Source: Phoronis australis (taxonomy: Eukaryota; Animalia; Phoronida). Taken from it: 64,000 bases of DNA. The stretch's first letter is position 1. Every line of letters begins with the position of its first letter. The stretch spans positions 130,936 through 194,935 of the forward strand of contig NMRA01000674.1 of assembly GCA_002633005.1 (NCBI GenBank), given 5' to 3'. Under the pieces are notes generated by a model. That model did not search any database and was not told the origin of the DNA. It saw only the letters and a list, made by a program, of their open reading frames with translations. Made by a program: the position numbers and the translations under genes. Shown here one piece after another: positions 12,466 to 61,535 of this stretch.

Positions 12466-13410
12466 TTAGTTGTGGTAACTAAGTATGATAGAGACGGAAA
12501 CAGTTTTTTGTGAAGTAAAGCACAGATGAAGTTCACATTTCTCGCATGCAATTCCAGTAAAACCGTCAGCACAGTACTTGCAACGACCTCTTTTCGCAAC
12601 TTTTATGGGCCAGTGACCAACATCATCGCATCTAACCTCACGCGGAAGTGCTGCCTTTCTTGCCTTCTTTGGTAGTGCAGGTTTTGGCAATTTAACCTCA
12701 TCCAACGATGGCCGGCCTCGCTTGAGAGCTTTGCACATGATCAGTGAAGTTGCAACTTGGGCCTGGAACATTCTCAGCTTCATGAGGTCCCCTTCGGGCT
12801 TTTGAAGAGCACGAAATTCCTTTTGGTACAATAGTCAAGCATTTACCACAGCAACGGATATAGTGTGCCAAAACAGGTACAGGTACCACCTTTTGGACGT
12901 GATGCCGTACTAGTACTTTGCTGACAGAGCACCCAACAGGTCGACACCATACATAAATTTATTGTACTGACTGACACAAAATGGCCTTGGGATTTGGACA
13001 TGTGACTTGGAGCTCTTGTCCCATCTTCTGACAATATCAGTAGGATTAGCACCAACAAAGGATGAAATGACAGTTACTGGCTTGTTGTCATTCCAGTGCA
13101 CAACGCAGATGTTTTCGTTGACCTCGACTTTTTCTTCATAGGAACCTCTTCCTTGTTTTTTCATTTCCTTTTCACTTTTGAGGCTGCACCCTTGGATAAG
13201 ATTGGTTCGTATAGTACCCAGGTACTGTATTCCACGTTCATGTAGCTTGTTAACCAGCTTGATACCAGAAAAGAAGTTGTCCGCAATTATTTTGTAGTTC
13301 TTGTGAGATGGCAAAGTTGCTGACAAATTCAAAACAACATTCGCACACAGGCCCAGCTCAGATTTAAACGTGCGCTGACTGCCTTGGTAAACGTCAAAAT
13401 CATAAATAAC
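12466..13410 (-). pseudogene. piggyBac (PGBD3-like) transposase, C-terminal half, frameshifted
   Basis: Motifs IIADNFF, YLGTIRTN, VHWNDNKPV and YNKFMYGVDL, and a C-terminal Cys-rich domain RGRCKYC...CEKCELHLCF, spread over several frames. Confidence 0.9.
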
Positions 13411-13914
13411 GTAGAAAATATATCTGAAACTAAATAAGGCGATCCAGATCCTCCCAAGGATATTATTGTTTCATGAAATGAAGAATATAAATCGGTAAAT
13501 AAAACAACAAGAATGGATCAACTGAAAATTAAAATTTTCGGATGTAATAACTTCCTTTATCAACAAAAACAGAAATAAAGTAAAATCAAACACAAAATGA
13601 CAATTGACATATAAGATATGGTGAAAATGAAACATTTTTGCGTAAAAAATTCAATGACATATTTTAAGAAGTTACGCAAAAAATGTATCATTTCTAATTC
13701 AAATAGTTTGTTCATTTGTCAAGAGAGGTCCCTCATACTGTAGCATTACTGCAACAATGGGCCTTGGAGGTTACACGATCAATAATATAAGCACAGAATA
13801 ATTGAGGGTTAACTATAGATTATCAAAAGTGGTGGTTTCAATATTACAACAAGGGGCATTCCAGGGTAAACTTCTTAAATTATATCATTGAATGTCAATT
13901 GTCATATACATGTA

Positions 13915-17925: not shown

Positions 17926-19027
17926 CCAAAAACGATTCGCATCGGAAGAACACACGTCCATTTGGAACTTATCGCGAACCAGGAAGTACAATTCTTTCAG
18001 GAACCCATGCTAAGAAAACCCCGTCAGTGCGACTGGAGTTTTCCCGGTTACCAGCGCAGAATGGGGAATGTTGGACAAAACCCTTTTGTCCACTGACGTC
18101 ACACGCATGCTGGCGCCCTCAGTGGAGGTTAGGAGACTTTGCACTGGTGGCCTGCCCTTGTAGAGTCTGCAGTTTGTTTACAAAACTGGTAACTTGACTC
18201 AGCGTGGTAACATCATTTGTATCAAACAAAGATACTCTATACCGAAATATTTGTTTGTATACCAGGCCACGGACAGTGCTGTTCTTGAATGGAATTATTT
18301 ATGGATATTAAGGCAATCCTTTGGCAAATATGAGCAGACTTTGAACATACCATTTTGTAAGACATAACCTTCAAAATTTTAATAAAAAATTAACGAATGC
18401 TATCCTGCGTATGACCTTGCTTACCAGTACGACATTCTTTTGGGCACGTTGAGTTTGTTGTCACGAGAACCGACTCACCTGTTTTGTGGAAAGCTTCCCC
18501 ACAGCTTTGAACACAGACTCGTTTTGGGGTTCTGGAATATAATGATTTATTCACTACACCAACTTGTCCACCTTTGCTACAATAAGGCTACCGATGTTCA
18601 CGGAATTTGCTTGATGGAGCAATTATGTGCGAAGACTAAATCACGGGTAACGTGTGAACTTGACTAACACGGTGCGAGTTTGTTGATCAAGAGCTGTTGA
18701 TGACATCAGATTTTATATCCTTTTCATTTCCTACATGTACGAATCGTTGAAAAGCGCCATCCAAGTCAAAACCAAGTATCTTGAAATATAACCCGTTTCA
18801 AATACCTGACCTTAGACATGACGCAGTAATCTAATACCTGACACGTTTTGATACCCATGTTGATACCAAAATCAATGAAAACCACACCCATTTCTCATAA
18901 TCATGAGCTGCCAGCAAGAATTAATTCGATTGTGCGTATCCAAACACAATGCGTTTTTCCCATATTTCATTTGAAACCTGAAGTTGGTCTAGTGCGGCAT
19001 CCCTATCAACCACGACAAGACAATTCA

Positions 19028-19832
19028 GCCGACCACCTCAATCACCATTTATGGCATCCACATTGACTCTGCCACCATGACTGCTTCTCTCCCACAGGAC
19101 AAGGTGGACAGAGCTTCCAACATCCTGCTCGACTTCCAAAAACGTCGCAAGGTTACTCTTCGCGACCTCCAATCCCTCATTGGTCTACTAAACTTTGCCT
19201 GCTCCGTCATCGTGCCCGGCCGCGCCTTCCTGCGCCGACTCATCAACCTCACCATCGGCATTTCGAGACCAGACCACTTTGTCACTCTCAATAAAGAAGC
19301 TAGAGCGGACCTTCGGGCTTGGTCCATCTTTCTCCGAGGCTTCAATGAGAAAACACTGTTCCTATTCGACAAGTGGACATCTTCAGACACCATCAAACTG
19401 TACTATGATGCTGCGGGCTCCAACGGGGGTTTTGCTGCGACATTGGGAGCTTCCTGGTTTGCCTACCCGTCGCCCGAGCACCTCCAACGCCATCACATCA
19501 CCTTCAAGGAACTCCTTCCGATTGCCATAGCGCTAGAGCTGTGGGGTTCAAAGCTTGTCAACCACAAGATCCTCTTGCTGTGCGACAACCGTGCTGTCGT
19601 TGACATTATCAACAAGACCTCCTCCCGCCACGCCCCCATTATGTCTCTTGTTCGTCGTCTGGTCATCTCCGCTCTTACCTTTAATGTTCATTTTCGGGCA
19701 AAACATATCCCCGGCTACACTAACATCATCGCTGATGCACTTTCTCGTTTCAACTTTCAGGTCGCCTTTTCCCAGGGTTATTGGCTCAGCCCTCATCCGA
19801 CACCGATCCCGCCGCACCTCCTGACAGAGTGA
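19028..19832 (+). pseudogene. Ngaro-type YR retrotransposon: RT C-terminus and RNase H (5'-truncated)
   Basis: LQSLIGLLNFACSVIVPGRAFLRRL, LYYDAAGS, HITFKELLPI, CDNRAVVDIIN and HIPGYTNIIADALSR are DIRS-group RT/RNase H motifs. Confidence 0.92.
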
Positions 19833-20660
19833 CCAGACTGCTCCGGGCTTCCCTGGCCCCCTCCACTCTTCAGTCCTACACCCGCATCCTGCATAACCTC
19901 GCACAGTTTCACCTCTCCTCTAACAACTCTCCGCTCACCTTGCCCATTAATACCTCTTTCCTGGCCCTCTACATCTCTCATCTCTTCGAATCTAGCCTTA
20001 GTAGCTCGTCTATCCAGTCCTATGTCTCTGCCATTAGTTTTGTCCACAAGCTTGACATCCTCCCAGTCCCCACTTCCTCCTTTTTCATCAAAAAAATCCT
20101 CAAAGGCACTTCCAATCTGCGCCCTTCTTCTGACGCACGCATGCCCATTACTTCCGCTTTGCTTCACTGCTTGTTTGGCGCCTGGCCTTCTGCACTTGGC
20201 TCTTTTGCCGACTCGGTTCTCGCACGTGCTATGTTCCTCTTAGCCTTCCATGCCTTCCTCAGGGTCGGTGAATTCACAGTCACCTCCTCGCTCTCCTCCC
20301 ACGTCATACAGGTCAGTGACGTCGTCTTCCCCCCTCTGGCGATACTGTGGTCATCACTATGCGTACCTTCAAGCACAGCTCGCGACCAGTGTCACAATTC
20401 CGTCCAGCCAATCTCCCCATTGCCCAGTAGCTGCCCTAACCTTGTACTTGTCTACTTTTCAGCCCTCTCCTGGCCCCTTGTTCCGACACCTCAGTGGATC
20501 ACCGGTTATTCGTTCCTGCTTCAACTCCATGTTAACTAAAGTGGTTTCCTTTGTAGGTCTCGACACCAAGTCTTATACGTCTCATAACTTTCGCATTGGC
20601 GCGGCCACCTCTGCGGCCAGCCGTGGCGACCCTGAACCGTTGATCCAGCGCATCTTGCAG
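19781..20660 (+). pseudogene. Tyrosine recombinase of the same Ngaro-type element (frameshifted, 3'-truncated)
   Basis: Overlaps the RNase H end on the same strand. Contains SLAPSTLQSY, FHAFLRVGEF (catalytic R) and SHNFRIGAAT (HxxR); breaks off before the GRW...Y motif. Confidence 0.9.
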
Positions 20661-23600
20661 AGTCTTAGTAAGTTTTATCTATTTATGTCATAATAAATGA
20701 CAATATTCGCAATCCTCCTCTTGTTTTAGTCTGCAACATAGCTCGTGGCGTACCCCGGGCAAAATAGATTACGATAAACACACATGTGCCCGATTTAAGT
20801 GTTGTGTTATTCATACTGTATGGATACAGGATAGCAACGTAAAAAGAATTCAGCGACAGTACAAAGGTGCATTCCAAAAGGCGCAACCAAAAATTTCTGG
20901 GATTCATATTTCTTGAACATGAAATTTGAGCAGCTGGATTTACAACAAGCAACATTTACACCAGTCAAGCCAGTTTGTTTGCATAAAGCGCTAAATCTTG
21001 AGAATTCAACCAGTTAATCAGAAATGCAAGTGAAAAAAAATTCCCGAGAAAACTAAACGATACCTACCAGCTGGCTACCACCTATCGGCACGCAGAGAAC
21101 GAGCGAGGGCCTAACTTGTTCGTTACATGCCTGTCTACTGTTTCATATAATCTGAAATAATGTTCACGATCTTGCATTCTACAGCGGCTATACTGAACGA
21201 TCGCGTTTCGTGTTGGGCCTAGCAGTTATGTGAAATACAGCAGCTGACGGATTATACTAAAAAGTTTATTCCAAGTATGCTCGTCAAAAGAAAAAAACGA
21301 ATGTTTTAGTCAGATGAGAAGCCTTGTCTTACTTCCCCTTGTTCGTTAGTTACTGATATTTTTGTGATGTAAATTACGAAAATTCCAAAGATATGGCGAA
21401 AAACATTATAACCGTGGATATCATAAATTGTTATAATTAGAGCGTAATTAGCATTGGTCAAATGAAATGCAGTTTGAGAGTGGCGTTCACCTGTGCGCGT
21501 CTGTGTAACATGTGAACAATAACTGTTTTGGGGTTATTGGTTACAATCATCTCCACAGAAAAAAGTTTCAGATTCATGTGAACGTTAAATGAGAACGAAA
21601 TCTGACGGACAACCATTAGAATCGAGAATAAACGTTGTCATGCCAAACGAACTACCTGCATGTACGTCAAAAGTGGATAAGTTTATATCTCCTGAAATTA
21701 TCCATGAACTTGTTTATATCGCTCCTAAAACCAGTGCGTGTCAGTTGAGCTTTGGCGGATAGTAGATAAATGTCGGGAAAACTAAAACTGGCCCGCAGCC
21801 AGCATTGCTCGGGGGGCTGGTTCGAATATCTAGCAAGCTGAACCTTTGTTATTTTGCAAATGTCGACACAAGAGTTTTCAAGGGGACCGAAAATTTGTAT
21901 GCACGGCAAAGATGGTTTTCATTTTTATGTTCGTGAGATCATACATAATTCAGAAATGAGGATGCCGTGACGTTTGTTCGAAAAGAGCAGGACTCAAATT
22001 CTGGTGTATATATGGTACACACATAGATTGTTCTATCGTTACCTCCTACCAAACTTTCAAATCAAACGTTTTTAAAAGAGTGATTACTCATTTCATCCTC
22101 AGACATAAATAATTGGATAATGACTTGACGTAAATTCTCATTTGATTGCATTTTTACGTGTTACTTATTGCTTACAACGATGGAAATGGAATTAAGCCAC
22201 TATTCCGAAGCAAATTTTATAGTTACCAAAGATGTCCGCTTGTGACCTAAATTCGTCACAGCTTTTCATTTAGCGCCGCCTTCTGAGAGGAGCTCATAAA
22301 ACGAAACAACATAGATAACTGTTAAGTTAGTTTGTCCTTTGGTGTTGACAAAATTTTTTGTTTCACTTGCATAAAACTAAGGAGAGGTAAGTCTATATTC
22401 ATTGTATATTCCACGCTAGGCCTACTGTTCTCAAGTATGTGCTGATCGGAGAACAGGAGTAAGTACTGGAGTAGAATAATAATAGTAGCAGGCCTACCTA
22501 TTGGGAATAGTTACTAAGAGTTGACAATACTGAGGCCCGTAGCATGGTCGTATGAGTCTCAATCGGTAGTGGATGCACCATCTTCTGCCAGGAATGTAAC
22601 AAAATCGATGTGGAGTTGTATCAGCTGTATTTGGTTAAATAAGACTAGTTTGTGTGTATTCTGCAGTTCAGGTTACAGTGTCAGACCCAGTGTCCTAGTC
22701 CACTGGCCTTGTTGACTGTGTGAAAACTGGGGTGAGATTGCACTTACACGGCCAGGTTTAGTGGAGAATGTTTGCATGCTTGCACAATGTAAAGATATTG
22801 TTTGTTTTCGTGTAGACTATGCTTAAAAAACCATGTGGAAAATGTCATTCTATTGAATTCAGGCAGTTGCTTTCATACCAGTCTTAGCCCTGAAAAAGTC
22901 TCAATTAATTACAGTTTAATATTATCATAATTAAATATTATCATAATTTCATAAACGTCCACGTAAATACAAATGATATTTCCTATAGATTGATATTGTA
23001 TTGTATTGTATTGTTATGCTTACAAAGGGATCTAAGAATTTTGTTATTCACTTGAATGGTCTTTACATTCATTCTAGTCTTATTGCATCGCATTAGTTAT
23101 CCCATGTGCAAAACATCATTATATTTTTGTTTTCCTCAAGTAAATTGTAGATAGTGATTCCTCAAAATTGGCTTGATGTCTAAAAATCTTGTTTTTATCC
23201 AAGGTAATTACAATCTTCACCACAGGCTCGGGCCTGGCTTGGGGGTCTCTGAATACAACTTGGTCCCCCGCCAATAGGTGGCGGTGCTCGAACTGTGTGA
23301 CTAGGCAAATTACACTGGGACGACCATCTTGGGATACAGTATCTTTGTCCGAATGTTCTTTATTCCGAATGTTCACTACTTCACTTGTCATCTCTGAAAG
23401 TTCACTACACCGAAAGTATCTTAACTTTCTGACTCTGGTGCAATTGTTATAATTTTGCATGGAAAACGACAATTCGGTTATTACATGCAGCTATACCAAA
23501 AATAACCACGGCTAATAAATCACGTTGTTTGGATTTCATGTGCATGAAAAATTGCCCGCATATCTTTCGAATACGTAAAAGTGAGTACTGTACGTACTTG

Positions 23601-25293: not shown

Positions 25294-26548
25294 AACAGAT
25301 GAAAGCGCTCCGAGGAGCGAACCTTGGCGAAATTAACCAAAAAGATGACGATAAAGATGATGACGAAGATGACGAATATGACGACGATGGTGAACAAAAG
25401 AATTATTAATAACATAGACATGACGAACGTAAAAGTCCGAAATCAGTAAGAAAAAGGCTACAGTCTTGTGCTACACTTGGCGAAATTAACGGAAAAGACA
25501 AGGACGGAGATGATGACGAAGATGATGACGATGATAACGAATATGATGATGATGGTGGCGATGATGAACAACATCACAACATTCATATGATGAACTTAGA
25601 TGTCATAAATCAATAAGAAATAGGCTACAGTCTAGTTCAATAGAAGATATACCAACATCAATGCAGCAAGAGCGCTCAACAAAGGAACAGCGTTATCAGA
25701 AAATCTCAAATAACTCGAAAAGTAGACGTCCTAGCGAAAAATGGAAGACATCTTCTGAAAGCCCGTTCAAAATTCTATCTAAAGTGATGGTATCGCCTAA
25801 TTCCGTAAATTTTTCGAAAAAAATGAAATTTTGCGTTTTTTTTAAAAATTCAAAGTCAAATAACTCGATAACGGTAAGTCTGAAAAAAAATTGTTAGAGG
25901 CCGTTTGAAAGATAATTCTTCAAAGAATCCACATGCAAAAAATCACGTCTTTTTGTCTTCCCGTTTTAAATCGCACTCCAGCACGACTGAAAATGGGCTA
26001 ACATGCGCCAGATCCGCAATCTTGAATGCAACTTCCGGTTTTTTAGTTGATACAATAGCATGTCACAAAAAACTAATATCCGTAAAACTTCGAAGGAATT
26101 GGCCCCATAATGCGCCCTGTACAGGAGAAAACGTTATTAGGCCAAAATCGAGGTGCGCATGCGCGATCACTGATATATCCGCCATCTTTGACCGGAAGTA
26201 AACAATTTGCAGGAGACATGTAGTGCACATCCGGTCCACTTATTGTGCCGATTTTCAGCTCTGTACGTAAAAAATTGCACAATTGTAGCACATGCGTTCT
26301 AGTATATTCGTACCGATTTTCAATTATGTAGGTTGAAAAATGCGGCCTCTACAAGCATTTGACTGTGAAATCGGATACAAAATGTCCGCCACGTCCGCCA
26401 TTTTGTATCCGATCATGACCAAAAACAATAGGCTTCCAGGACTTTCCGATCTACACGTTGTGTGCAAATTTCGTGAAAATCGGACGAAAACTGCGACCTG
26501 TAGAGTGATAACAAAAAATACTTGGCGAAAGAATCTCGCCAAGTAATA
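25294..26548 (+). mobile_element. Helentron/HINE-like non-autonomous element, unit 1
   Basis: 5' GCGCTC..GAGCG inverted repeat, GAT/GAC microsatellite blocks, and a terminal hairpin TACTTGGCGAAAGAATCTCGCCAAGTA followed by an A-rich tail. Confidence 0.6.
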
Positions 26549-26734
26549 AACACAACTTTTCTTCGTCCGCCGCTTAGAATAGAACACAAAGAACTTCTAC
26601 AAGAGAAGAATTACGAAAAGCCATGCGGTGGAGCATAGAAACATGCAGGGAAGTGTCTTTTCACAAATGAACTGGCTGTGTACTCCTCTTAGAAGCAGTC
26701 TCAAGCAGACCATGNTAATGCTGTCGGGGTAACA

Positions 26735-28098
26735 AACAACATGAAAGCGCTCTGAGGAGCGAAACTTGGCGAAATTAACTAAAAAAAAAACACGTTCGAG
26801 AGGACGAGAAAAGACGACGACAGAGATGATGACGAAGATGACAGCTATGACGACGATGGTGGCGTTAATGGACAACCCTAGTTATGATATCATTCATATA
26901 ACGAACGTAGAGGTCAGAAATCACTAAGAAATAGGCTTCAGTCATGAGCGACCCTTGGCGAAATTAACTGAAGAAAAGACGACGTCGGAGATGATGACGA
27001 AGATGACGAATATGATGATGGTGGTGGCCATGATGAAAAACATCATAACATTCATATGACGAATTTAGATGTCATAAATCATTAAGTATTAGGCTGCAGT
27101 CTAGTTCAATAGAAGCTAAACCAACCTGAATGCAGCAAGAGCGCTCAACAAAGGAGCAGCGTTATCACAAAATCTCTAATAACTCGAAAAGTAGACGTCG
27201 TAGAGAAAAATGGAAAGCATCTTCTGAAAGCCCGTTCAAAGCTCTATCTAAACTGATGGTATCGCTTAATTCCGTAAATTTTTCGAAAAAAATGAAATTT
27301 TGCGTTTTTTTTAAGAATTTCAAAGTCAAATAACTCGAAAACGGTAAGTCTGAGAAAAAAATTGTTACAGGCCATTTGAAAGAATATACTTCAAAGAATC
27401 CACATGCAAAAAATCACGTCTTTTTCTCTTCTTGTTTAAAATCGCACTCCAGCATGACTGAAAATAGGTCAACATGCGCCAGATCCGCCATCTTGACAGC
27501 AACTTCCGGTTTTTGGTTTTGTATAATAACATGTCATAAGAAACTAATACCTGTAAAAATTCGAAGGAATTGGTCTGATAATGCGCCCTCTACAGGAGAA
27601 AACGTTTTTAGGCCAAAATCGAGGTGCGCATGCGCGATCGCCGATATTTCCGCCATCTTTAACCGGAAGTGAACAATTTCCGGCACATTTGTAGTAAGCT
27701 TCCGGTCCATTTACTGTGCCGATTCTTAGCCTTTTACGTAAAAAATTGTAGCCTCCAGAAGCATTTGAACTTTTAAATGGAAACAAAATGGCCGCCACAG
27801 CAGCCATCTTGGATCCGATTTTGACGAAAAACAATAGGCTTCTAGTACTTCCTGCAGTACATGTTATGTGTAAATTTCGTGATGATCGGACGAAAATTGC
27901 GACCTGTATCGTGCGAACAAACAAAAAAAAAAAAACTTAGTGGAAGAGCAACATACTTGGCGAAATTTATTTCGCCAAGTAACAAGTAAAAACTTGACGA
28001 CAGAGCAACATACTTGTCGGAATTCGAAGAATTCCGCCAAGTAACAAACTTGGTGGAAGAGCAACATACTTGGCGAAATTTATTTCGCCAAGTAATAA
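26735..28098 (+). mobile_element. Helentron/HINE-like non-autonomous element, unit 2 (diverged tandem copy)
   Basis: Colinear with 25294-26548 (e.g. 27130-27670 vs 25661-26200); ends in three tandem TACTTGGCGAAA...TTTCGCCAAGTA-type hairpins. Confidence 0.6.
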
Positions 28099-34335: not shown

Positions 34336-34959
34336 GTAAGAAATTTAGTGTTCACTGTATACAGATGCATAGTATTTGGTAAGTTAAAAAATGTCATTTC
34401 CTCCGTTACAAGAAACGAATGTTTGATTTGGAGTAAAAGTCGCTCCTTAAGCTTAGCTTATGCATGCTTTTATGCTACATTGTTCAGAAATTGAAAAATT
34501 GCATTAAATGTGCGTGGCATATCACATTCGTGAAGATTTTCAGAAAATTTCCAAAACAGTACCCAAGGAGAATAACACTATTTGGTTTGCAAATTGCATT
34601 TTTCTTCAAAACATATTGTCTTTTCTGAAAGAATAATTGTAACTTGCAAACATTTAGAAGCTTAAACATAACCGATGTTATGCAATATTTCCTGAAGTGC
34701 TATTGAAGTTCGTAAAACGGCCAGGGTGCGGCCATTGTTTGTAAGGTCCATGTACTTATTCTACTACAGAGCAAAAACCGAACTTATTACGCAATAATGT
34801 TATTCTTTGTTAAAGCAATTTTAGAGCTCTAAAAGAGCAACACACTATGTGTTTGTTTCGGAAGAAGACGGTTTTCACAACACAATGTTTGTGACACTTG
34901 TGACGATTGTTATACTTACTGAACACTATCTTGGTGTTTTGTCACGGATTTCTGAATGT

Positions 34960-35562
34960 TAAGAGTTTAAATGATAGTGAATGTAATTTTATTAGTTTGT
35001 CGAGTTTTTCACAATGAATTGAATCGTTATGCACGACGGAGCCATTTGAATTCTCAGGACATGTTCCAAGCAATCGATGGGGCCCAAGCATACGATGACT
35101 TACTATTGAAACAGCAAACTTTTCACTTTTGTTCATGCTAGAAGTCATGATAGACACAGATTTAAGATTAACATACCACATATCTCCCATTCATTCTTGT
35201 GGCAACTTTTTAAACAATAGTTTGATCATCCTTTGGCGGGTGATTTGATGAGGCTTAAATTAAGCGTTTGAATGATGGTGAATGTAATTTTGTTAATTTT
35301 GTCTAGCTAGTTTTTACAGTACATTGAATTGAAACATTATGGAAGCCGGGGCTATTAGAAATGTCGTACATGTACTATATTCCAAGCAAACCTTTGCGGA
35401 CCAAGCATACTTTTGTAACAGCAAACTTCTTATTTTGTTCACGCTAGATGACATGATGGACAAAGATTTAAGATTAAGATACCACACATCTCCCATTATT
35501 CTGGTGGCAACTTTTTAAACAATTCTCTGACCATCATTTGGAGAGTGATTAGATGAGGCTTT
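34960..35562 (+). repeat. Diverged tandem duplication, ~300-bp unit x2
   Basis: AATGATAGTGAATGTAATTTT (34970) recurs at 35271; both units end ...GATGAGGCTT. Confidence 0.8.
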
Positions 35563-37359
35563 GTAATGCAATGTGCATTAAACAAGCAGACCACTAGGTT
35601 GTCGTTTACAGTTCATGTAACTGTTCGCCCTTTTTTGCCGAAATGAAAACCTGTGCTGTTACAAACTTAGTGTACGTGTTCATGTGTCACCTCGTCGCAC
35701 CAAAACACCATGTAAAAAAACATCGTAAGCCATGCAGCAGACAATAATGACTGTATAAGCAAAGTATTAGTCATCAACATCGCTTCAAGTAACATATATG
35801 CCACGAAAGAATAATCGCACACTTCCGCTTCTAATACATGTGCCTGAATACTTACTGTGAATTATGCAACAATGTGTTCTTACACAGAAAATCACTAAAC
35901 AATGGAAGTCCTTACCATTTTGCACTAACATTTTACGGAAAACAAAATGCACTCAAGTAGTGAAAGCAACAAGGTGTACGCATCAATGCCACATCACGTC
36001 ATATAAAACATACTGTCAATAACAATTATTTATTTCTAATACACATACGTGAGCCTTTACTGTAAAATATACAAAATCAATGTCCTGTCACACAAACCAA
36101 TAAATAAGAGAAATAATGTTTAGTGATACAAGTATATGCATGTATCGGTGTACCGTTTAAATCTTAGAACGATACAGTGCGTAGGAGACGACCGTTGCTT
36201 GGAACAATACAGCGTGACCAAAGCGCGTCGCGTTGCATCGTTTTAAAAACTAAGAACGATACAGGGAATAGAACGAGAGACCATCTGTATCGTTGTAGGC
36301 CTAACCTCTTGGCCCAATCATGACCAACGCAAGTCTCGCTGTGTCGTCTTAAAGACTAGAACGATACAGCGGGTAATGAGGCACGTTTTAACGTTGTGAC
36401 CTTTAGAGCAATACAGTGTGACAAATGGTTGCCTCGCTGTACTCGTTTTAAAGTCTAGAACAAGGAAGAGTGTTGAACGCATTACAGCGTTCTGTCGTTC
36501 CGTAAGTTTTACAGACGTGAGGGGTGCTCGAACGTGCGATAACATCTGGCTCTTTTGTTAAATGCCCAGAGTCTATTGTCCGGCATGATAACAAGCAGGC
36601 CAATTATCTCCCAGGCTTCAAAGGAAACGTTTGGTGGTTGCACGCTATTACCGAACGCGTATGAACACAGTCAAACCCTTGCGTCCGTTTGGACAGAATA
36701 GATTGTCTTAACTTCTGTTGTAGTTGGGCGATTTTGGTGAGTCAAAAACGGAGCATGATCAGCATTTGACGAGGAATTCAGAAATTCTACTATTTTATGC
36801 TCAAATAATATATGTTATAACTTAACTTTCATTTTTATCAGCCCAACCCAGTCAGTCTAGATACTGTACAATCTGATCGGAGATTTGAGCAATTATGGAA
36901 CAAAAGAGCGCAGGCCCTCCATGTGGAATGGAGTTAATCAGTCGTGTAAGATATTGGCTACAGGGGTAAACTTCCCAACTTGTTGTTGGGCTACAGAATC
37001 GAACAAGTTGGGAGCAACGGGATGTCGCCGTCATGAAGACGCACGCTTTGCGACGCTAAGAACCATAAATCGTGACAGACGTTAGTCTACATATACATGT
37101 AGCTGTATAAACATCAGAACAGTACAGAAAATTGAACGACATGCACTCATTGACGTTATAGCCCTTGACGATACAGGGTGAAGAACATGCGTCCCTTTGT
37201 GTGGTTTTAATATCTAGAAGGATACGGTGAGCTAGCGATCGAGATGCACTTTGAAACGTTGTAACCTCGTTGAACAACATAGCGCGACAGTCGCGTGTCT
37301 CAGTATCACTTTAAAATCAACAACTACTCAGCGAGTAGAAGGTGAAGCACTCTAAACGT

Positions 37360-38080: not shown

Positions 38081-38738
38081 ACAACACAAATCTGTTTTTA
38101 TCGTTTTAAAGCTTAAGAACGATACGTCGAGTTAAACGACCGATACACGATTACGAACGCGTCTCGTATGAAACTCTAGGAAAGTGTGTGCAGTTTACAG
38201 TATTGGTTATCCTTTATTCAGATGATCAAATGCAGTTAGTAACGATCTAAATACTACACCGTTTCATCAGATGCACCCAGTCTCATTTTCCGTATTGGAC
38301 AATACAAGATTATAATTGCAGAAAGTCAGCAGGCTTTTTAGACATTTTCCATAGTATTTCTATTGAGAAAGGCTCGCAAAACCGGAAATCGAGCCATGCC
38401 TATTAGCAATCCAATGTTGAATAATGGGGATCCCAAATTTCTTCTTGCAACAACCAAGAGGAGAAAATCTATACAAAACTGTGCAAATTTCTTCAACCTA
38501 CGCCAAAAAGGCGCCGACATGCCAAATTCCATTATGGTTACTTTACACTGGTATCAACCAGGTTGTTTCAGTTTGTACTTGAAAATGCGAAAGGATAATT
38601 GTTCTATCGAGGAGAAAATGGTTTGCGAAAGATTATGCACATTTTTGTTGAGATTAAAATATCATATACTTGCTTCTCCTTTTCATAATTGTTTCTCCGT
38701 AACTTGATCTGCCATTGAATTACAGAAAACTAGAAGTC

Positions 38739-38820
38739 ATGAGGTGCGTGGTGATACTCATTGTGCTGATGCTAGCCGTAGGCTGCCTCCAGGCGTGGCC
38801 GGTAGATGGCGAAGACGAAG
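38739..38820 (+). CDS. Signal-peptide/acidic pro-region exon of a secreted cysteine-rich peptide (MRCVVILIVLMLAVGCLQAWPVDGEDE+G)
   Basis: Acceptor TTACAG| at 38725; GTCATG start; basic N-region, hydrophobic core, LQA|WP cleavage-like site, acidic spacer; phase-1 donor AAG|GTGAGA at 38821, in frame with both downstream Cys exons. Confidence 0.85.
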
Positions 38821-39099
38821 GTGAGAAACAATAACTGTCAGTACCCTGGGCCGAGCTCCATGCGAACTTCGCAAGTACAGATAAAGTGATCACGTGCTGT
38901 GCTTGTAATGCCTGGTGTTTTCGCGAGTTTTTTTTTTTGTTTGTGGAGCATGAGATGTGGATCAAAAATCTCAGTACTAGTAACACTTCAAATTTAAAGG
39001 TTCATTTGGCTTACTGAAGATTCACCACGACTTGAGATTTTCTAGTCCTGTTAGAAGAGGTCTCATCTTGCATAGAACAGGTACACAAAAAGACTACAA

Positions 39100-39940: not shown

Positions 39941-41342
39941 ACGTTTGGATTTTTCGGCATTTAGTTTGGCTAATTTTCCCGATATGAATGCGTTGGTGCT
40001 CCTTCTTTTGCGGGTTTCAGTCGGACGGATAAGTTTTTTTCTCTTTTGAGCACTTGGTGTGATCTCACGTTTATCGGTGCAATTTCTAATTGTTTATTTA
40101 CTGAGGTGTTTCGACAAATGCATCCACTCTGAATACGGACATATGTCCAGTCTGTGTGTATTTTCTGAGACGCACACCTTCATCCCCTCAAGCTTGTTAA
40201 TCAAGTTTATTTATAGGTAAATATAAGGTAACATATAGGAAATATAATTAAGTTGTAACTTCATAATTATTTGGTTACCGTATAGTTACCACTTCCTTCA
40301 CTACCTCTCCTTGGACTTCCAGTGAACGGGTGGCTTGCGCGTAATGAAGAGATCATTAAACTATTGCCGTCCTCATCTCGACCATAGAAACACGAAATCT
40401 TCAATGTTGCAATTTCACGCTCGATTGGTCTGAAGAGAAATAAAAGCCAAATCAATCGACTCGCAATTTAAAGAAACCGATAGATCTAGTAGCGCTCATT
40501 GTAACTAAGCTTGATTTCAAAGATCAAAATTCAAAACCATCACGGGATGCCTGTCAAAGATATATATTTTACGGAACCCCAAATAGATGGTTTTCATCCA
40601 CGTGTGGGGCGAATCCAATACATAAACAACTAAGAATCATCCCATCTCGAATTTCGTGTTCTCTCCAGTTCACATCAGGATATAGCAAAGCAAAGAAATA
40701 TGCGACGGGAACAGTCGGCGCTATTTATATTGTTACATTGGAGAGTTCTCGCCACATTTCCTACAAAATCTTCATCTTATCGTCTTACTATTGCTAACAA
40801 ATACGCACCGGTAACTGTTGAATTGCCTTTGCCAGAATACGACTAAAAAGAAATAGATATTAAGTTTTAAAAGTTGCTTTAAAAATACAAAGCGTTCTAA
40901 AGTATTCCTAATTCATCCAGTGGTCCATGTACTTTGTTCAACTGTGCTGTTTATTGACATTTCGTGCATTAACGGCAATAAAGGTATTTTTGAATTTATC
41001 AGCCAAAGTTTCAACCTTGTGCTAGTCAACTTGTATGCTTCATGAACTGCAAAGATTCTCTCGTTGATAATAACCCGTTCTCTTCATACAATTCCGTTCA
41101 GTTCAACGTGCCTTTGACTTTCCTTCCCCGAACACGCCCCCCGGAAAACGCCTCCTCTCCATTAGTTATGTAACAGCATTTGTTATCGTTCTGTCGCTTT
41201 CTATAGTGTGCTCGTATCATTCCAACTTCGACACCCCCTTTCCAAACCTCAGCCACGGATTGAAGCTGCACCTGTTTACCGTTAGAATGGTGAGAATGAA
41301 GCGCGGCTGTATTTTACGAGTGAACAATTTCCTCTATTTCAG

Positions 41343-41446
41343 TTGCAGTGAAAAGATCCCGCACATGTGATATCGGTTGCACCTACACATGCAATTTTTT
41401 GAAAAAAACTACAACGTGCCCCAATGGAGTTTGTCGTTGTGTTTAA
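41343..41446 (+). CDS. Mature-peptide exon A: (V)AVKR-SRTCDIGCTYTCNFLKKTTTCPNGVCRCV*, CS-alpha/beta defensin/toxin-like
   Basis: Polypyrimidine acceptor TTTCCTCTATTTCAG|, phase 1; KR dibasic site; six Cys as C-x3-C-x3-C-x8-C-x4-C-x-C; stop TAA then donor TAG|GTATGT at 41450. Confidence 0.85.
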
Positions 41447-41541
41447 TAGGTATGTATACAACTACACAAAACCAAGTAAAATAGTTTAACTGGTTCCGGT
41501 CTGCGACCAAAGGTTTTTGAAAACTGCGCTTCAATGTATAA

Positions 41542-42638
41542 AGGAGAATGCCACCCGATTTAATTAGTCTTTTTTGCCGTCTTAATCGGTCTATATCCAC
41601 TTCGACTCTAATACGTTCGACCTTACCTTGCCAAGAGGTGTTGTGTTAACCTGTGAGGAAGGTTAGAAACGACGCTAGCGACGTCAGTGGTTCATATGCA
41701 GAGTGAATGACGCTATGTTGCGGTGCATCGCTCCCGCTTGTCCGTACTTAGCAGCTGCGAGGAAAGCGGGTATATCGTTTTTTGCTTCCTCGAGAGTCCG
41801 AAATGCTTAGGAAGTGGCTCATGGTAGTGAAGAATGGAATGTACGCTATAAATAGCAAGTATGAAGCCGTAAAACATTTCTGTACCTGTGGCCTGCAAAC
41901 GTCGACAGTGCCTGACGAATGCCGGCTTACCAAATAACTCCATACGTTCCGTTGTCTGAGCTTGTTCACGGCGCCTCTCTAGTATTTCTTCATCACTGTA
42001 TTCCTGTTCGAATTGATAGCCTGTAAAACTTAACGATCCACCTGCGAAGTCGCCGGGGACTGATGCCGTCCTTAGTCGGGATTGCGAGTTGCCATTTTGG
42101 CGTTTATTACTGAGCGTTTTGTTTCAAAATGAATTATTTTCACCCTAACCAATACTTATATAAAACTGAAACAAAGCCTGCCTCAATAGATGCAGTTTGT
42201 AATGCCTTTGCAGTGTTCGTGAGTGCAAATGATTTGAGAAGCCAGCAATGAATAAATCACTGCGTTACCGGTTTTAGGTGCAATAAAACTAATTGACGGG
42301 ACACCGAGGCTAATTTAGTGTTTGCTGGAAGAAACTGTTGTAAAACAACTCGATTTCCATCCCACGGCCAAGTGTTAGAGGAATCTTTATTTACATTTAC
42401 ATTAGTCAAATATTTATTGTCAATGTACAACTTCTGCCCTGAGGGTGCTGTGGCCAAAGCGGAACCTAAATTCGCGGCCACCGACGAGTAAGTAGATTTG
42501 CAGTTTCGTGGCAAATTCACCAACATAATCAGGTGCACATTACTTTCGCTCACTAGTATAGTATTTTCTTGACTGGAAGTTTAGTTTCCACTAAACTTTG
42601 GCTGGTTTATGTTCGTGATGTCTGATCAGTTTCCGAGC
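41542..42638. mobile_element. Kolobok-like non-autonomous element, copy A (cut by the gap)
   Basis: Same left terminus AGGAGAATGCCACC and interior as 44037-45647. Confidence 0.65.
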
Positions 42639-42693
42639 NNNNNNNNNNNNNNNNNNNNNNNNNNNNNNNNNNNNNNNNNNNNNNNNNNNNNNN
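42639..42693. other. Assembly gap (55 N)
   Basis: Run of N. Confidence 1.
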
Positions 42694-43354
42694 GAAAACA
42701 TCTTGTTTTCATTTGAAAGACTTTAGACTTGGTTTCTATAACTATTTAAAGCAGACTTCTTGCCTAAAAGTTTGTTCAAATGGTTTGTAAACTCTGCTCG
42801 TCATTTCCAAACTATGAAAATAGACAGTTTTGCAAGACAATTTTCACTAAAGTGCAAAGTTGAGGCAAGATTTTTTATTGCTCAGTCATCAAGACTAACT
42901 CTTTAACTGTATGTTCAAAACGTCACATAAGGCTACAAGGTGTTTTATGGCAGTAAGAAGGTCACAAAAATGGCCACTAAAATTAGCCCCAAAAAGTGGT
43001 CTGTGGATTATCTCCCCTGTCTAGCATAAAACTGTTAGATTTTAATAAATGGCACAGAATTATGCACAGTATACGTTGGTTATTTCAGCCACCAAAATAT
43101 AGCTTTTGATCTATTTTGTATGTTACTCTTTTTTGTTGCTGAAAACATGCGATTTTTGAGACGGCTAATATGCCCAATTGTGCCAATTTGTGTTATCATG
43201 CTCCAGCGGCGAAATTAGAGGTCATTGAGTGCGCAAAATTTGGCATTTGGGTTTTTGTTAGGATACCTACCCATGTACAAAAAATGAAGTTGTTTTAAAT
43301 TTTGACGTATAGACTGATTTTTGAAAATCTACTGGTTTTTATATGGACTGCCTC
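42694..43354. mobile_element. Right end of a Sola3-like DNA transposon
   Basis: Ends ...ATATGGACTGCCTC|TTAA; GAG/CTC termini with a TTAA target are typical of Sola3. This sequence is absent before the equivalent TTAA of copy A (40860). Confidence 0.55.
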
Positions 43355-45149
43355 TTAAGTTTTAAAAGTTACTTTAAAAATACAAAGCGTTCTAAAGTAT
43401 TCCTAATTCATCCAGTGGTCCATGTACTTTGTTCAACTGTGCTGTTTATGGACATGTCGTGCATTAACGGCAACAAAGGTATTTTTGAATTTATCAGCCA
43501 AAGTTTCAACCTTGTGCTAGTCAACTTTTATGCTTCATGAACTGCAAAGATTTTGTCGTTGATAATAACCCGTTCTCTTCATACAATTCCGTTCAGTTCA
43601 ACGTTCCTTTGACTTTCCTTCCCCGAACACGCCCCCCGGAAAACGCCTCCTCTCCATTAGTTATGTAACAGCATTTGTTATCGTTCTGTCGCTTTCTATA
43701 GTGTGCTTGTATCATTCCAACTTCGACACCCCCTTTCCAAACCTCAGCCACGGATTGAAGCTGCACCTGTTTACCGTTAGAATGGTGAGAATGAAGCGCG
43801 GCTGTATTTTACGAGTGAACAATTTCCTCTATTTCAGTTGCAGTGGAAAGATTCCGCAGATGTGATTTCGGTTGCAACTACCAATGCACTTTAGGGAGAT
43901 TAATTGCAGATTGCCAAAATGGAGTTTGTGTTTGTGTTTGACAGGTATGTATATAACTATACAAAACCAAGTAAAATAGTTTAACTGGTTCCGGTCTGCG
44001 ACCAAAGGTTTTTGAAAACTGCGATTCAATACTTGAAGGAGAATGCCACCCGATTTAATTCGTCTTTTTTGCCGTCTTAATCGGTCTATATCCACTTCGA
44101 CTCTCATGCGGTCGACGTTACCTTGCCAAGAGGTGTTGCGTTAACCTGTGAGGAAGGTTAGAAACGACGCTAGCGACGTCAGTGGTTCATATGCAGAGTG
44201 AATGACGCTATGTTGCGGTGCATCACTCCCGCTTGTCCGAAATAAGCAGCTGCGAGGAAAGCGGCTATATCGTTTTTTTACTTTCTCGAGAGTCCGAAAT
44301 GCTTAGGAAGTGGCTCATGGTAGTGAAGAATGAAATGTACGCTGCAAATAGCAAGTATGATGCCGTGAAACATTTCTGGGTCTGTGACCTGCAGACGTCG
44401 ACAGTGCCTGACGAATGCCGGCTTACCAAATAACTCCATACGTTCCGTTTTCTGAGCTTGTTCACGGCGCCTCTCTAGTATTTCTTCATCACTGTATTCC
44501 TGTTCGAATTGATAGCGTGTAAAACTTAACGATCCACCTGCGAAGTCGCCGGGGACTGATGTCATCCTTAGTCGGGATTGCGAGTTGCCATTTTGGCGTT
44601 TATTACTGAGCGTTCTGTTTCAAAATGAATTATTCTCACCCTAACCAATACTTATATAAAACTGAAACAAAGTCTGCCTCATTAGATGTAGTTTGTAATG
44701 CCTTTGCAGTGTTCGTGAGTGCAAATGATTTGAGAAGCCAGCAATGAATAAATCACTGCGTTACCGGTTTTAGGTGCAATAAAATTAATTGACTGGACAC
44801 CGAGGCCGTGTGAGCTCATGCTAATTTAGTGTTTGCTGGAAGAAACTGTTGTGAAACAACTCGATTTCCATCCCAGGGCCAAGTGTGAGGGGAATCTTTA
44901 TTTACATTTACATTAGTCAAATATTTATTGTCAATGTACAACTTCTGCCCTGAGGGTGCTGTGGCCAAAGCAAAACCTTAATTCGCGGCCACCGACGAGT
45001 AAGGATATTTGCAGTTTCGTGGCTAATTCACCTACATAATCAGGTGCACATTACTTTCGCTCACTAGTATAGTATTTTCTTGACTGGAAGTTTAGTTTCC
45101 ACGAAACTTTGGCTGATTTATGTTCGTGATGTCTGATCAGTTTCCGAGC
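43355..45149 (+). repeat. Copy B of the ~1.8-kb direct duplication
   Basis: Colinear with 40860-42638; begins exactly at TTAA. Confidence 0.95.
43838..43941 (+). CDS. Mature-peptide exon B: (V)AVERFRR-CDFGCNYQCTLGRLIADCQNGVCVCV*, CS-alpha/beta defensin/toxin-like
   Basis: Same acceptor, phase, length and Cys spacing as exon A; RFRR furin-type site; stop TGA then donor CAG|GTATGT at 43945. Confidence 0.85.
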
Positions 45150-45647
45150 TACTGGCCAGGATAACAAGCGGTTTGTGTTTAGAACTCAAAAAATCACAAG
45201 TCTAAACAACACAGATCTAGGTTCTCCTGTCAGTATCTCACGGAAAATACTTCGAAAATATCTCTGAACAGACCCCAAACTCCTGCTACGGACCTTATTG
45301 GCCTGCCGAACTTTGTAGGCTACGCTGTGTCCAAATACCAATAAATCCGTAAGAGCGAAATAAAAACACGTTTTTATAAGAAATCGGTGTATGTTTAAGG
45401 GTTTTACATCGACGTTTGATGATTTATTGGTGTTAAACGATGACTTCAAGCGATAAGCTGACACCAGTAACCCGTGTTGTGAACTGCTGAACAGACTGCG
45501 TGTGAAACCGATGACGTCATTGGTTAATTTCAACACCTCCGTCTGCCGTCAGGTGTCAGGTAACGCAACCGTACGTGTCGTTATGGAGTAGAACTACTCG
45601 ATCTGAATTGATACAAATTAGGTTGTTTTTTTGGGCGGCATGCTCCT
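44037..45647. mobile_element. Kolobok-like non-autonomous element, copy B (both ends present)
   Basis: TTGA|AGGAGAATGCCACC ... GGCGGCATGCTCCT|TTAA (AG..CT termini, TTAA-like TSD). Minus-strand YQFEQEYSDEEI resembles KolX N-termini. Confidence 0.7.
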
Positions 45648-47415
45648 TTAAACAAAAATGTCGCCCATTACCCCAACAATGTTGACAATTTGTGTTACAA
45701 AAGGTGTGCGAACATATGTAACAACATCGCAAAACAACTTAGCAAGTATACCTCATTCTTAGTTGCAAGTGGTTCGGTTTGCCAGCTCCCCACACCCCAC
45801 AAGTACAATCAACCCGGTCAATCAGAGCGGTAATTCCGCGCCATTGGATCGCTGGGGTAGGAAAAAATCGCACACGCATTTAGACCATATTACGTGGCTT
45901 CAAAAATGTAAGACTATACACATACCGTATCACTGCAAACATTCTCAAAAGCACCGGCTAGGACCTACATTGTATATGACTTCTTGGTCTAACTAAGATC
46001 CTTCCAAACCTGAGACATTTCCAATACTGGGTAGGGTTCAACAACACTAGGACTTCTCTGGAAAACCACTACTTCGCGAGATTACGCGAGATATTTTTGT
46101 GTATTTTAAATGAAAACACTCGATTTTGGCGAGATTGTTCAAGCATCGAGATATCTACTGAACTCTATCGTGGTGTGACCCCAATCAGTGTGGTGCAGAA
46201 TCCAGTGGCAGCTTATCGAACAGCAAGGCGGCGACTGCATGGTAATGATGAGGATGAAGTATAATTTGAGGCCAATGCACGGTTTCTTCCATAAAACAGA
46301 CCGAAGTAGGGACATAATTACTTTCCATAAAATTTCTGATGAGTTGTGGACTTTTGAAAACACTGATTGCCCGTTTTTCTTTTATCACTTAGTCAAATCT
46401 AGTCTGAACTGCATGTTGAATTCTCTATATGATTGAACATAAGTTGCAAATTGTTAAGGCAACGTCCCAAATTTTGGGACTAAGCCTCTACTAAATTAAA
46501 GGCTCAGTTTTCAGTTATATTAAAAGAGTTTGTTACAACGCAAAGGAGTTCGTAACAGAGATAAGGTGATAGAAAGAAATCACACGTTTGTGAGTTGTCA
46601 ATGACACAGATATGTAAACATCTTAAGGATCTTAATGGATTGACTAAGTTCTCAATTAAAAGTCTCAGAGGAGTCTTAATTTGGAGAATAGATGCCCTGG
46701 GACAACAAACTGGGAATAAGTTAACCTAAGCAGTTATTGTCATTTTTTTTAAATGTCTGTTCATCATTTTAAACGTTAGCGTTATCACAAAGAAGGGGAC
46801 ATTTCAGACGGCGGAGATTACCGTGGACTCATCCCGTTGAATAATTATTGTGGGTGGAAAAGTTTTAAGTTTTTGGGAAATTTCTTCGGAATTATTATCC
46901 TGACTTGGTAGTGTCGTCTTGCTCTTCTGCTGGGCAATGATGACTGACTGCTTCACGCGAAGATTTCTTAATAGCTCTTTACCGGTTTCCATAGACTATA
47001 GCCGCAAATCGCTGGACCATTAGTCAGATCAATAACTCTAACCTGACCCTTCCTTTTTTTCATTCATAGAGGGGCTCTTGCACTTTTGTCTGTAAAAATT
47101 GACAGAGGACGACGGACTGCGTGAAACAGCCTGTCATCAATGCCAAATAGCATATTTAGTCAGGCGTAAGGCCAGGAAAGTTTTTTTTGCAGTAGCTTCC
47201 AAAGAGTTGATGATTCTCTTCTCATTTCAATATGGCCACACTGTTAATGGAAGTCTATTTTTCGATCGAGAACTACATGTATAGCTCTGTCTAGTGCATT
47301 CAGAGTTATTCACTATGCACGTACCTCAGACTATGCAACACAAGTGTCTTTCATTTTGTGCACGAGTATGTGACTGTGGCGCTTACATGATAAGTGCTTT
47401 ACGCTTGATTTTCAG

Positions 47416-47520
47416 GTAATTGGTTGGTCAACAGTGTGGACGACGTTTGAAATTTTGCAAGTAAAATAAATGCATCGACGACCATTTGAAGGCAAAAATA
47501 AAAATATGTCAAAGCCACTT
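47416..47520 (+). other. Candidate terminal 3'-UTR exon of the peptide gene
   Basis: Acceptor TTGATTTTCAG| followed by AATAAA at 47465 and 47497; assignment to this gene is inference only. Confidence 0.25.
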
Positions 47521-59399: not shown

Positions 59400-61535
59400 T
59401 CCTGAATGAACTGTGAAGTGTTAACAATTATTAACATTGGAAGTGACCACAGAATGGTTAGAGCAAAAATAAGAATCAACAAAAGCCTACTAAGGCTTAA
59501 ACGAATGGAAAGACTGAGATCATTCAAGGCAAACACAGAACACATGGAATAATGCAAAGAATACTTTCAACTGACACTAAAAAGAGATTTCAAGCCTTAG
59601 AAGAAGACACTAAATCAATCGAAACTTTTAACAAAGTCCTAACAGAAGAAATCAAGATCCTGCATGAGAAAAAAGGAAAGACAGGCACAAGTCCATCACC
59701 AGAAGACACTAAAGCTCAACAGATGGACACAAAAAGAAAAGAACTGTACAAGAAAGACAAAAAGACAGAAAGAGAAAGAATAGAATACAGTGAACTTAAC
59801 AAAACAATGAAAACATTTAAGAGAAATAGAGCCCGACGATAAAGAATAAAGATGATAATGGCCACAATTGAAAAAGGAAAAGGACCAAAAAAATCTACAA
59901 GCAAGGAAATAAAAAGAAGATATCAAAAATGCGAAACCCTAACGGAGAAATAACAAACAACAGAGAAGAAATACTCAAAATTTTATATGAGAAAACGATG
60001 AATCCACCAGAAAAGATGGGAACCAGGAATCTAGACACAGAACAAGTACCACCTTTCACTGAGGAGGAAGTAGAACATACCCTCAGAAGGATGAAGAAAA
60101 GAATAGCACCAGGAAATGATAATATTACAAGCGATATAATTTCGGCAGGAGGACAAGAAATAATCAAATACTTGGCAAAAGCATTCAATGTAATTCTAAG
60201 CACCCAAAACATCCCAAAATGCTGGAAAGAAGCAAATATAATATTATTGTTTAAAAAGGAGACCGAAGTGACATAAAGAACTATAGACCCATAAGCTTAT
60301 TAGCTCATACATACAAACTGTTCACAAGGCTATTACAAAATAGAATGGAGAAACAACTGGATGAAAATAAACCCCGAGAACAAGCAGGGTTTAGAAAGAG
60401 CTACTCAGCAACAGACCATCTACAAGCCCTTGGACAAACAATTGAAAAATGTAACAAATTTAACCTGCCACTGTGTGTTGGTTTCATAGACTATGAAAAG
60501 GCTTTTGATTCAGTTGGACACTTTGCGATCACTGAAGCCCTAAAAAACATCAACAAAAATGAAACATTTGTAAAACTGCTGCAATATATATGCAGATGCC
60601 ACCGCCAGAATACACATCGACAACCACGTCTCTGAAAGATTCAACATAGAGAGAGGAGTTAGAGAGGGAGACCCAAATTCACCTAAACTGTTTACACTGA
60701 CAATGGAAGAAACCTTCAAATCTTCAGGCTTTCAAAGGGGAGTAAACATAGACGGAGAACATCTAACACACCTAAGATTTGCAGATGATGCTGCTTTGTG
60801 CACAGAAGACATAATACCATTATAAACAAATTTAAATATACTGAATGAAGAAAGCAACAATGTGGGATTAAAGATACACAAGAACAAGACAAAGTACGTG
60901 ACAAATTTTGAAACCAATGAACAAGTAATGGTGGAGAGCAAGATAAATACCTGGGACAAACTATACAAATTGGAAACCTCATGAACAATGAAATACAAAT
61001 CCGAATAAGAGCTGGATGGGGTTGCTTTGGAAAAAACAGAGAAATATTCCAAGATAAGAATATACCCATATGCCTGAAAAGAAAAATATTTGACCAGTGC
61101 ATCATCCCCACAATCACCTATGGATGCCAAACATGGACCTTAACAAAACAGACAATTACCAAGCTAAGAGCAACACAGAGAGCAATTGAGAGAAAAATTC
61201 TTGGAATAAAGCTACTAGACAGGGATCCACACACAGAGATAAGGAAACAAACAGGAGTTATGGACATAATCAAGACAATTCTGAAATTGAAATGGAGGTG
61301 CGGCGAACACGTCGCCAGAGCACAGGACAACAGATGGACAAAAAGATGCACAGCGTGGAAACCCAGATATGGAAAGAGATCAAGAGGATGGCCCCAAGCC
61401 AGATGGAGAGATGACATCGTGAAGACGAGAGGCACAACGAGGATGAGAGCGGCAAGAGACAAAACAAATTGGAAGGCATTGCCGGAGGGCTACATCCTGT
61501 AGTAGATGGACAATGCCTAGTGTCAGTAAGTAAGT
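59400..61535 (+). mobile_element. RTE-clade LINE, 5'-truncated and frameshifted
   Basis: SDHRMV (APE end), APGNDNI, EQAGFRK, IDYEKAFDSV, RGVREGD, HLRFADD, RIRAGW...TYGCQTW; short AGTA-repeat tail at ~61525. Confidence 0.92.

Follow-up and report, generated by a model that had tools for sequence, protein, structure and literature searches.

Among the closest described systems are peptide genes of molluscs and snakes, and the statements on them here and below are limited to parts of the sources cited. Alleles of the Conus ebraeus E1 locus differ at 1–11 nonsynonymous sites and 1–8 residues, and their differences are almost all nonsynonymous in the toxin-coding region (PMC2707604). The Mytilus MgCRP-I genes form a multi-copy family with a pre-pro region that is conserved and a six-cysteine mature peptide that is hypervariable and under positive selection, and they consist of four exons, the first of which is non-coding (PMC4558851). 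Alleles and recent paralogues of mussel CRP-I are often inseparable (PMC10138031). Myticin C is a highly variable defence peptide, reported to have divergent basic sequences and recombinants, with its mature region under positive selection (PMC3164099). In snake-venom toxin genes, introns are more conserved than the exons of the mature protein, and the nonsynonymous rate (Ka) is close to or above the synonymous rate (Ks) (PMC7285919). In this study, a predicted gene for a secreted six-cysteine peptide was analysed in Phoronis australis (contig NMRA01000674.1), using a window of 64,000 nucleotides (nt), which is the whole stretch of DNA considered and to whose positions all coordinates refer. 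The third exon of this gene stands twice in the window, as versions A and B, and these differ far more than the sequences flanking them. A and B likely represent the two alleles of a single gene's exon 3, scaffolded in tandem. The favoured reading as a whole, namely alleles set in tandem by the assembly and coding for a defensin-like secreted peptide under diversifying selection, is given a probability of roughly two in three.

Divergence of exon 3 between versions A and B

The window contains a single long internal duplication, in which 40860–42638 and 43355–45149 share 94% identity. These segments were compared by global alignment, and exon 3 was additionally compared in an in-frame codon table. 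Across 33 codons (41345–41443 in A, 43840–43938 in B), 23 of the 99 nt differ without any insertion or deletion, thereby altering 16 of the 33 residues. The 17 unchanged residues, including the six cysteines, use identical codons, and all eight residues between the third and fourth cysteines (C3 and C4) are replaced. The codon table reproduced each of these counts from an earlier reading made from the letters alone (the sequence-only reading). That reading had called the two copies mature-peptide exons, which is correct in that the six-cysteine peptide is coded here, but exon 3 also codes the end of the predicted pro-region, and 3 of the 16 residue changes precede the first cysteine.

Upstream of exon 3, 9 of the 483 intron positions differ between the copies, in agreement with the 9 sites (~2%) counted earlier. 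The last of these differences lies at 41213, leaving 129 identical nt next to the exon, a run whose length departs only slightly from expectation (P = 0.09 when the upstream rate is applied and 0.007 with that of all flanks). The downstream flank diverges more than the upstream one, with differences at 54 of 1188 nt (6 in the next 89 nt and 48 of 1100 in the transposon). The exon differs from all flanks taken together with a Fisher P of 3e-11, which rules out an intron as divergent as the exon. In a sliding-window comparison, the worst 99-nt window outside the exon held 10 differences against 23 inside, and 23 were reached in 0 of 20,000 permutations. The excess first described as an exon evolving about ten times faster than its intron is real, but its size ranges from 5- to 19-fold with the reference chosen, the downstream flank being the more divergent.

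Counting by the Nei–Gojobori method gave 22 changes in 77.5 nonsynonymous sites against 1 in 21.5 synonymous sites (Fisher P = 0.022). The corresponding nonsynonymous divergence (dN) is 0.36 and the synonymous divergence (dS) is 0.048; dN amounts to 5–19 times the flank divergence. The differences are distributed as 8, 12 and 3 over the first, second and third codon positions, and no synonymous change was found in the 10.7 synonymous sites of the conserved codons. At a rate of 23%, one change or fewer in 21.5 synonymous sites has a probability of 0.04; the power is modest, with an upper 95% limit of 0.23 for the proportion of synonymous differences (pS). The synonymous sites change at the rate of the flanks, and this speaks against two processes offered by the sequence-only reading, position-blind hypermutation and conversion of the entire exon by a distant paralogue. 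That reading's other proposal, positive or balancing selection, gained support, and the codon pattern favours diversifying selection over either process. The fixed cysteine codons, which had been taken as a signature, carry no force, since they contain only 2 synonymous sites and would stay unchanged by chance with P = 0.93 at the flank rate and 0.59 at 23%; their conservation as the sign of a mutator was rejected on this ground.

Evidence from the contigs of public runs

Ten public runs were listed; the DNA evidence among them consisted of assembled contigs, and X1, X2 and X3 derive from one sample, perhaps the assembled one. Such de Bruijn contigs are unphased, and contig depth is not equal to copy number. 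Both exon versions occur in contigs of the DNA runs, so the divergence of A and B is not a sequencing or consensus error, and an assembly error in which only one exon sequence exists was likewise ruled out. In X1, a contig covering 40617–41350 (depth 32.2) stops where the exons first differ, and from there two branches of 175 nt lead on, one matching A exactly (depth 22.2) and the other of B type with 27 differences from A (depth 21.3); all 145 of 145 branch k-mers are version-specific. An X3 contig matches A exactly across 815 nt, and in an X2 contig the letters of exon B follow the flank found upstream of A.

The depths of the two branches compare with 36–39 in several nearby contigs, by contig depth only. 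Eight X1 pieces were listed, with depths of 36.3, 37, 26, 35.3, 20.3, 13.3, 25.7 and 32.2, and the two lowest are a haplotype pair. If A and B are alleles and 21.75 represents one copy, the upstream contig is predicted at 32.8 (observed 32.2) and a nearly homozygous contig at 41 (observed 37). A homozygous tandem pair predicts 27.7 and limits the contigs of unique flank to 21.75, whereas 25.7–39.2 was observed; a homozygous tandem duplication is ruled out by depth. A second haplotype was found in the flank upstream of A (40667–40820), carrying six substitutions and a 5-nt insertion, and contigs of X1, X2 and X3 all run unbroken across 40860. After the signal exon, at 38789–39090, two haplotype contigs of X1 are distinguished by 17 sites and 5 gap letters in about 297 nt, which indicates that background heterozygosity is high.

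The sequence-only reading had treated A and B as two exons of one locus. This is probably wrong, as the X1 bubble and the half depth of its branches point to two alleles, and contig depth and graph shape together indicate that A and B are probably not true tandem exons on one chromosome. Haplotype-specific variants at half coverage are the stated mark of heterotype false duplication in the part of the source that describes it (PMC8081667).

Gene model, predicted peptide and related exons

The gene is predicted to have four exons and to code for a secreted precursor of 61 residues (Table 1). Exon 2 codes for a hydrophobic predicted signal peptide (maximum 11-residue hydropathy 3.7) followed by an acidic pro-segment, and its phase-1 donor is in frame with both versions of exon 3. 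Read from the sequence, the precursor has a hydrophobic N-terminal core, an acidic spacer and a basic site before the first cysteine. The signal exon is present once in the window; exon 4 is also present once, downstream of B, and acceptors and donors are intact in both copies of exon 3. Introns of GT–AG type and the kind of repeats present point to an animal gene. The start of exon 4 was placed at 47416 because, in a contig of run X5, an exon-3 variant is immediately followed by sequence that matches from 47419 on. The RNA joint between exons 1 and 2 was not seen among the 15 of 173 joints listed. The stop codon lies 3 nt before the donor of the last intron in both versions (41444–41450 and 43939–43945), and the stops themselves differ (TAA and TGA). 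Under the 50-nt rule, a stop this near the last junction spares a transcript from nonsense-mediated decay, so the normal transcript would escape it.

Table 1. Positions of the predicted gene parts and of the sequences around the two copies of exon 3
Feature	Position	Strand	Remarks
TATA-like box and predicted non-coding exon 1	TATA-like box 34275; donor 34335/34336	+	donor CAG/GTAAGA; inferred from sequence only
Exon 2	38726–38820	+	ATG at 38739; 27 codons; phase-1 GT donor
Intron upstream of exon A	40860–41342	+	compared with the B copy (see text)
Exon 3, version A	41343–41449	+	end of pro-region, basic predicted cleavage site, six-cysteine peptide; stop 41444–41446
Repeat of very high copy number in the intron following exon A	41539–42638		truncated at the gap; aligns to the full copy after B
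Scaffold gap between copies A and B	42639–42693		55 N
Sequence unique to upstream of copy B	42694–43354		660 nt; ends at TTAA; no break at this TTAA in copy A
Exon 3, version B (likely second allele)	43838–43944	+	
Complete copy of the intronic transposon	44033–45651		19-nt terminal inverted repeats, 84% complementary
Exon 4, 3' untranslated	47416–47520	+	AATAAA at 47465 and 47497; 3' end approximate

The sequence-only reading was silent on the gap that separates the copies. Copy A terminates at this gap, inside a repeat whose summed X1 depth is 2–4 × 10^5 compared with 40–80 nearby. The 660 nt upstream of B have no second match within the window and likely represent one end of a transposon insertion that is polymorphic, as judged from the TTAA junction. 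The 1.6-kb very high-copy element in the last intron, which has a TTAA-like end and a resemblance to Kolobok-type elements with a THAP remnant, has a dense cover of RNA reads on both strands. Another high-copy, transcribed repeat (36500–37035, summed X1 depth 0.7–1.4 × 10^5) lies in the first intron, as does an older 300-nt tandem pair (34959–35561, 76% identity). Elsewhere in the window there are an older 1-kb duplicate pair with internal repeats (25299–27748, 83% identity), overlapping long frames resembling a DIRS-type retroelement (18993–20690; reverse transcriptase thumb E = 1e-4, and a tyrosine-recombinase-like frame by eye), a DDE_Tnp_1_7 transposase fragment (12913–13470, minus strand) and a frameshifted LINE reverse transcriptase (59872–61499, plus strand). 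A Pfam scan of 108 of the 125 window frames of at least 78 residues gave matches in 7 only, all transposon-type or marginal.

The spacing of the cysteines is 3-3-8-4-1 in both versions. The CS-alpha-beta superfamily is defined by six cysteines with C-x3-C and C-x-C motifs, and both motifs are present here. In a search of the PDB, a profile of the two versions matched the insect defensin coprisin (2LN4) with E = 0.005 over residues 12–32, and a scorpion potassium-channel toxin with E = 8.2; as single sequences, version B matched coprisin with E = 0.76 and version A gave no match. The nearest Atlas clusters of both versions were scorpion short toxins (0.84–0.85), which serves as a lead only. Neither version matched any Pfam family at E up to 10, with 33-residue queries limiting the sensitivity, and the peptide is thus filed under no named Pfam defensin or toxin family. 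Homologue searches using the two-exon alignment, and using the signal exon at near and longer lengths, gave no candidate under a requirement of three shared 5-residue words, which is weak for short queries. A metagenome pattern scan gave 0 matches in one scan; one metagenome match (L001) was set aside as chance, being of 57% GC with similarity confined to 21 letters. C3 and C4 stand 8 residues apart, so the cysteine array is not that of O-type conotoxins or MgCRP-I. Myticins have eight cysteines; here there are six, and the stop follows one residue after the last of them. The peptide likely acts like a CS-alpha-beta defence peptide.

Related exons were found in further runs. A third form of exon 3 occurs in X5, a run of a different sample that is RNA by guess, among the 40 of 71 rows listed. 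This form follows B at most of the informative 5' sites and A at the last three informative events. It also has two codons found in neither version and seemingly an additional codon between the first and second cysteines, and could be either an allele or a close paralogue. The split from B to A gave P = 0.03 in a best-split permutation that was made post hoc, and is a weak hint of recombination. The RNA runs X8 and X9 were read at 18–19% with a match threshold of 80%. Their strand-specific reads on the signal exon numbered 1050 and 1914, respectively, and almost every one differs from the window at 38774; the reads of these related signal exons cease to match at 38818 and continue into a different exon 3. 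Exon A was covered at depths of 0 and ~2 in X8 and X9, which is uninformative on more divergent alleles at that threshold. The loose ends of the DNA contigs hold at least two further exon-3 starts, and at least three other starts occur among loose ends overall. The segments 40986–41161 and 41241–41328 of the upstream intron match other contigs at ~80% in X1, X2 and X3, with exons that diverge beyond alignment, and these contigs likely represent paralogues. The RNA reads, the loose ends and the ~80% intron matches together indicate an expressed family with several copies, whose members also vary in this exon.

Competing explanations and comparison with known systems

Under the favoured reading, the assembler would have been unable to merge two haplotypes that differ by a divergent exon and by transposon sequence, and would have placed one after the other. 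Secretion of the 61-residue precursor and cleavage at a basic site (K-R-x-R in A, R-x-R-R in B) would free a peptide of 26–27 residues with three disulfides and a CS-alpha-beta-like fold. The scaffold would stay fixed, comprising the six cysteines, a glycine, a tyrosine and an N-G-V turn, with the C3–C4 segment replaced wholesale and the exposed residues likely under strong diversifying selection. The charge of the peptide from residue 7 is +2 in A and 0 in B. The role is most likely host defence against fast-evolving microbes or parasites, but the peptide may instead be a toxin or serve in recognition. Rare or divergent alleles would be favoured, and recombination would keep the flanking intron at ordinary heterozygosity.

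Several points weigh against this reading. The predicted depth of 32.8 assumes that five unlisted differences are the remaining A/B sites, and the X2 contig that joins the flank of A to exon B is weak evidence, contigs being unphased. A contig across the junction 43354/43355 was not among the matches listed (24 of 57 loose ends). Transcripts of exact A or B were not among the RNA matches listed. Synonymous sites are few, and with an upper limit of 0.23 on pS, old balanced alleles with flanks homogenised by recombination may also be compatible with the data. Transversions make up 17 of the 23 exon differences compared with 29 of the 63 flank differences (P = 0.03, or 0.04 after allowing for nonsynonymous opportunity), an excess that selection alone does not obviously predict. 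CS-alpha-beta peptides have a helix that the disulfides C1–C4, C2–C5 and C3–C6 pack on a two-stranded sheet, and they act as antimicrobials or on ion channels. For the present peptide, AlphaFold gave a mean predicted local distance difference test score (pLDDT) of 58 and 52 and no helix, models too poor for a fold test; Foldseek (best E 3.8) and VIA (best Z 2.8) were run on these low-confidence models, and the absence of a Pfam match for either version counts in the same direction.

It is unlikely that A and B are recent paralogues, arising from the duplication of a gene of at least 13 kb that was collapsed in the assembly except here and followed by positive selection. With a depth baseline drawn from the gene span only, recent whole-gene duplicates collapsed elsewhere would look similar, and the equal depths of the two branches also fit two homozygous loci. 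The family is multi-copy, as its other exon-3 starts show, and mussel CRP-I illustrates how poorly alleles and recent paralogues can be told apart. Against duplication, each bubble holds only two versions, and the flank divergence of 1.9–4.5% is like that of the other two-path bubbles in the gene, such as the one after the signal exon. In an animal this heterozygous, two loci would be expected to yield at least three haplotypes, although rare variants are lost from contigs.

Exon 3 might instead be a swappable cassette of an undescribed peptide family, with a series of alleles like that of the major histocompatibility complex (MHC) whose members differ at half their residues, exchange of exon segments among alleles and paralogues through conserved intronic arms, and local mutation biased towards transversions, which would make the stand-alone mature-peptide exon a generator of diversity for an invertebrate effector; we regard this as quite unlikely. 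It is very unlikely that A and B are real alleles whose divergence arose mainly by local mutation or conversion (paralogue tracts or error-prone repair), with selection acting as a filter. The transversion excess and the 8 adjacent pairs among the 23 differences agree with local mutation, the X5 form is B-like at its 5' end and A-like at its 3' end, and the paralogue intron of ~80% identity just upstream of the exon offers possible homology for exchange. However, synonymous changes are almost absent, both in the conserved codons and overall, only 3 of the 23 differences fall at third positions, and a simple tree that lacks recombination accommodates the X5 form as well. For hypermutation guided by cysteine codons, direct evidence is stated to be lacking in the part of the source that discusses it (PMC4029134).

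A real tandem, in which two alternative exon-3 cassettes are spliced in a mutually exclusive manner between one signal exon and one 3' untranslated exon, is highly improbable. It would account for the layout of the window, with one signal exon, two complete copies of exon 3 and one downstream 3' exon, and the 660 nt upstream of B are absent upstream of A. A homozygous pair is contradicted by depth, the contigs of all three DNA runs pass 40860 without a break, and the junction between the copies is an N gap inside a repeat, so the sole escape is a hemizygous haplotype with A and B facing a deletion. A transcript containing both exons would meet an early stop, and its degradation would be expected.

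If allelic, A and B give a single animal two versions of one peptide that differ at 16 of 33 residues on haplotypes only 2–4% apart, about twice the largest allelic distance in the Conus ebraeus E1 series as given in the part of the report cited (PMC2707604). Because the matched introns provide an internal neutral clock, unlike in comparisons of paralogues, the locus can test selection against conversion and targeted mutation. It also represents an expressed peptide family without a homologue in the protein sets searched. The fastest-evolving alleles of a genome may end as false tandem exons in short-read assemblies.

The tandem layout resembles heterotype false duplication, in which divergent haplotypes both enter the primary assembly at half coverage and are mistaken for exon duplications, according to the portion of that account consulted here (PMC8081667). 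This process accounts for the layout only; the divergence of A and B is biological. As for the peptide, insect defensins consist of a signal, an acidic pro-segment and a basic cleavage site, and the same order is found here. Coprisin and the scorpion short toxins (Toxin_2, Toxin_5) share the six cysteines, C-x3-C and a terminal C-x4-C-x-C with both versions. In coprisin, however, C2–3 lies far from C20 in the profile alignment, whereas 3 residues separate the first and second cysteines here, and, unlike the CS-alpha-beta superfamily, the present peptide has no Pfam match or sequence homologue.

Among the systems in which variation itself has been described, the E1 alleles of Conus ebraeus are likewise alleles of one locus with near-exclusively nonsynonymous differences, as far as the cited portion extends; A and B differ at 22 nonsynonymous sites and 16 residues and have no adjacent cysteine pair, and there is no evidence of venom use here, unlike in conotoxins. 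MgCRP-I, as described in the section cited, is also multi-copy, with a variable six-cysteine mature peptide and four exons including a non-coding first; its cysteines follow C-C-CC-C-C and its last exon holds the mature peptide and the 3' untranslated region, whereas the present peptide lacks a CC pair and its gene has an intron after the stop codon. Myticin C shares a variable defence-type peptide with positive selection on the mature region, but in the part of the source available its introns vary at least as much as its exons and its anionic region is C-terminal, whereas here the exon varies far more than the intron and the acidic segment is N-terminal. The snake-venom comparisons, in the portion cited, were made between paralogues, and the present one is probably between alleles. 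The pattern itself is thus known from conotoxins and mussel peptides, while the family is apparently undescribed and its allelic distance unusually large.

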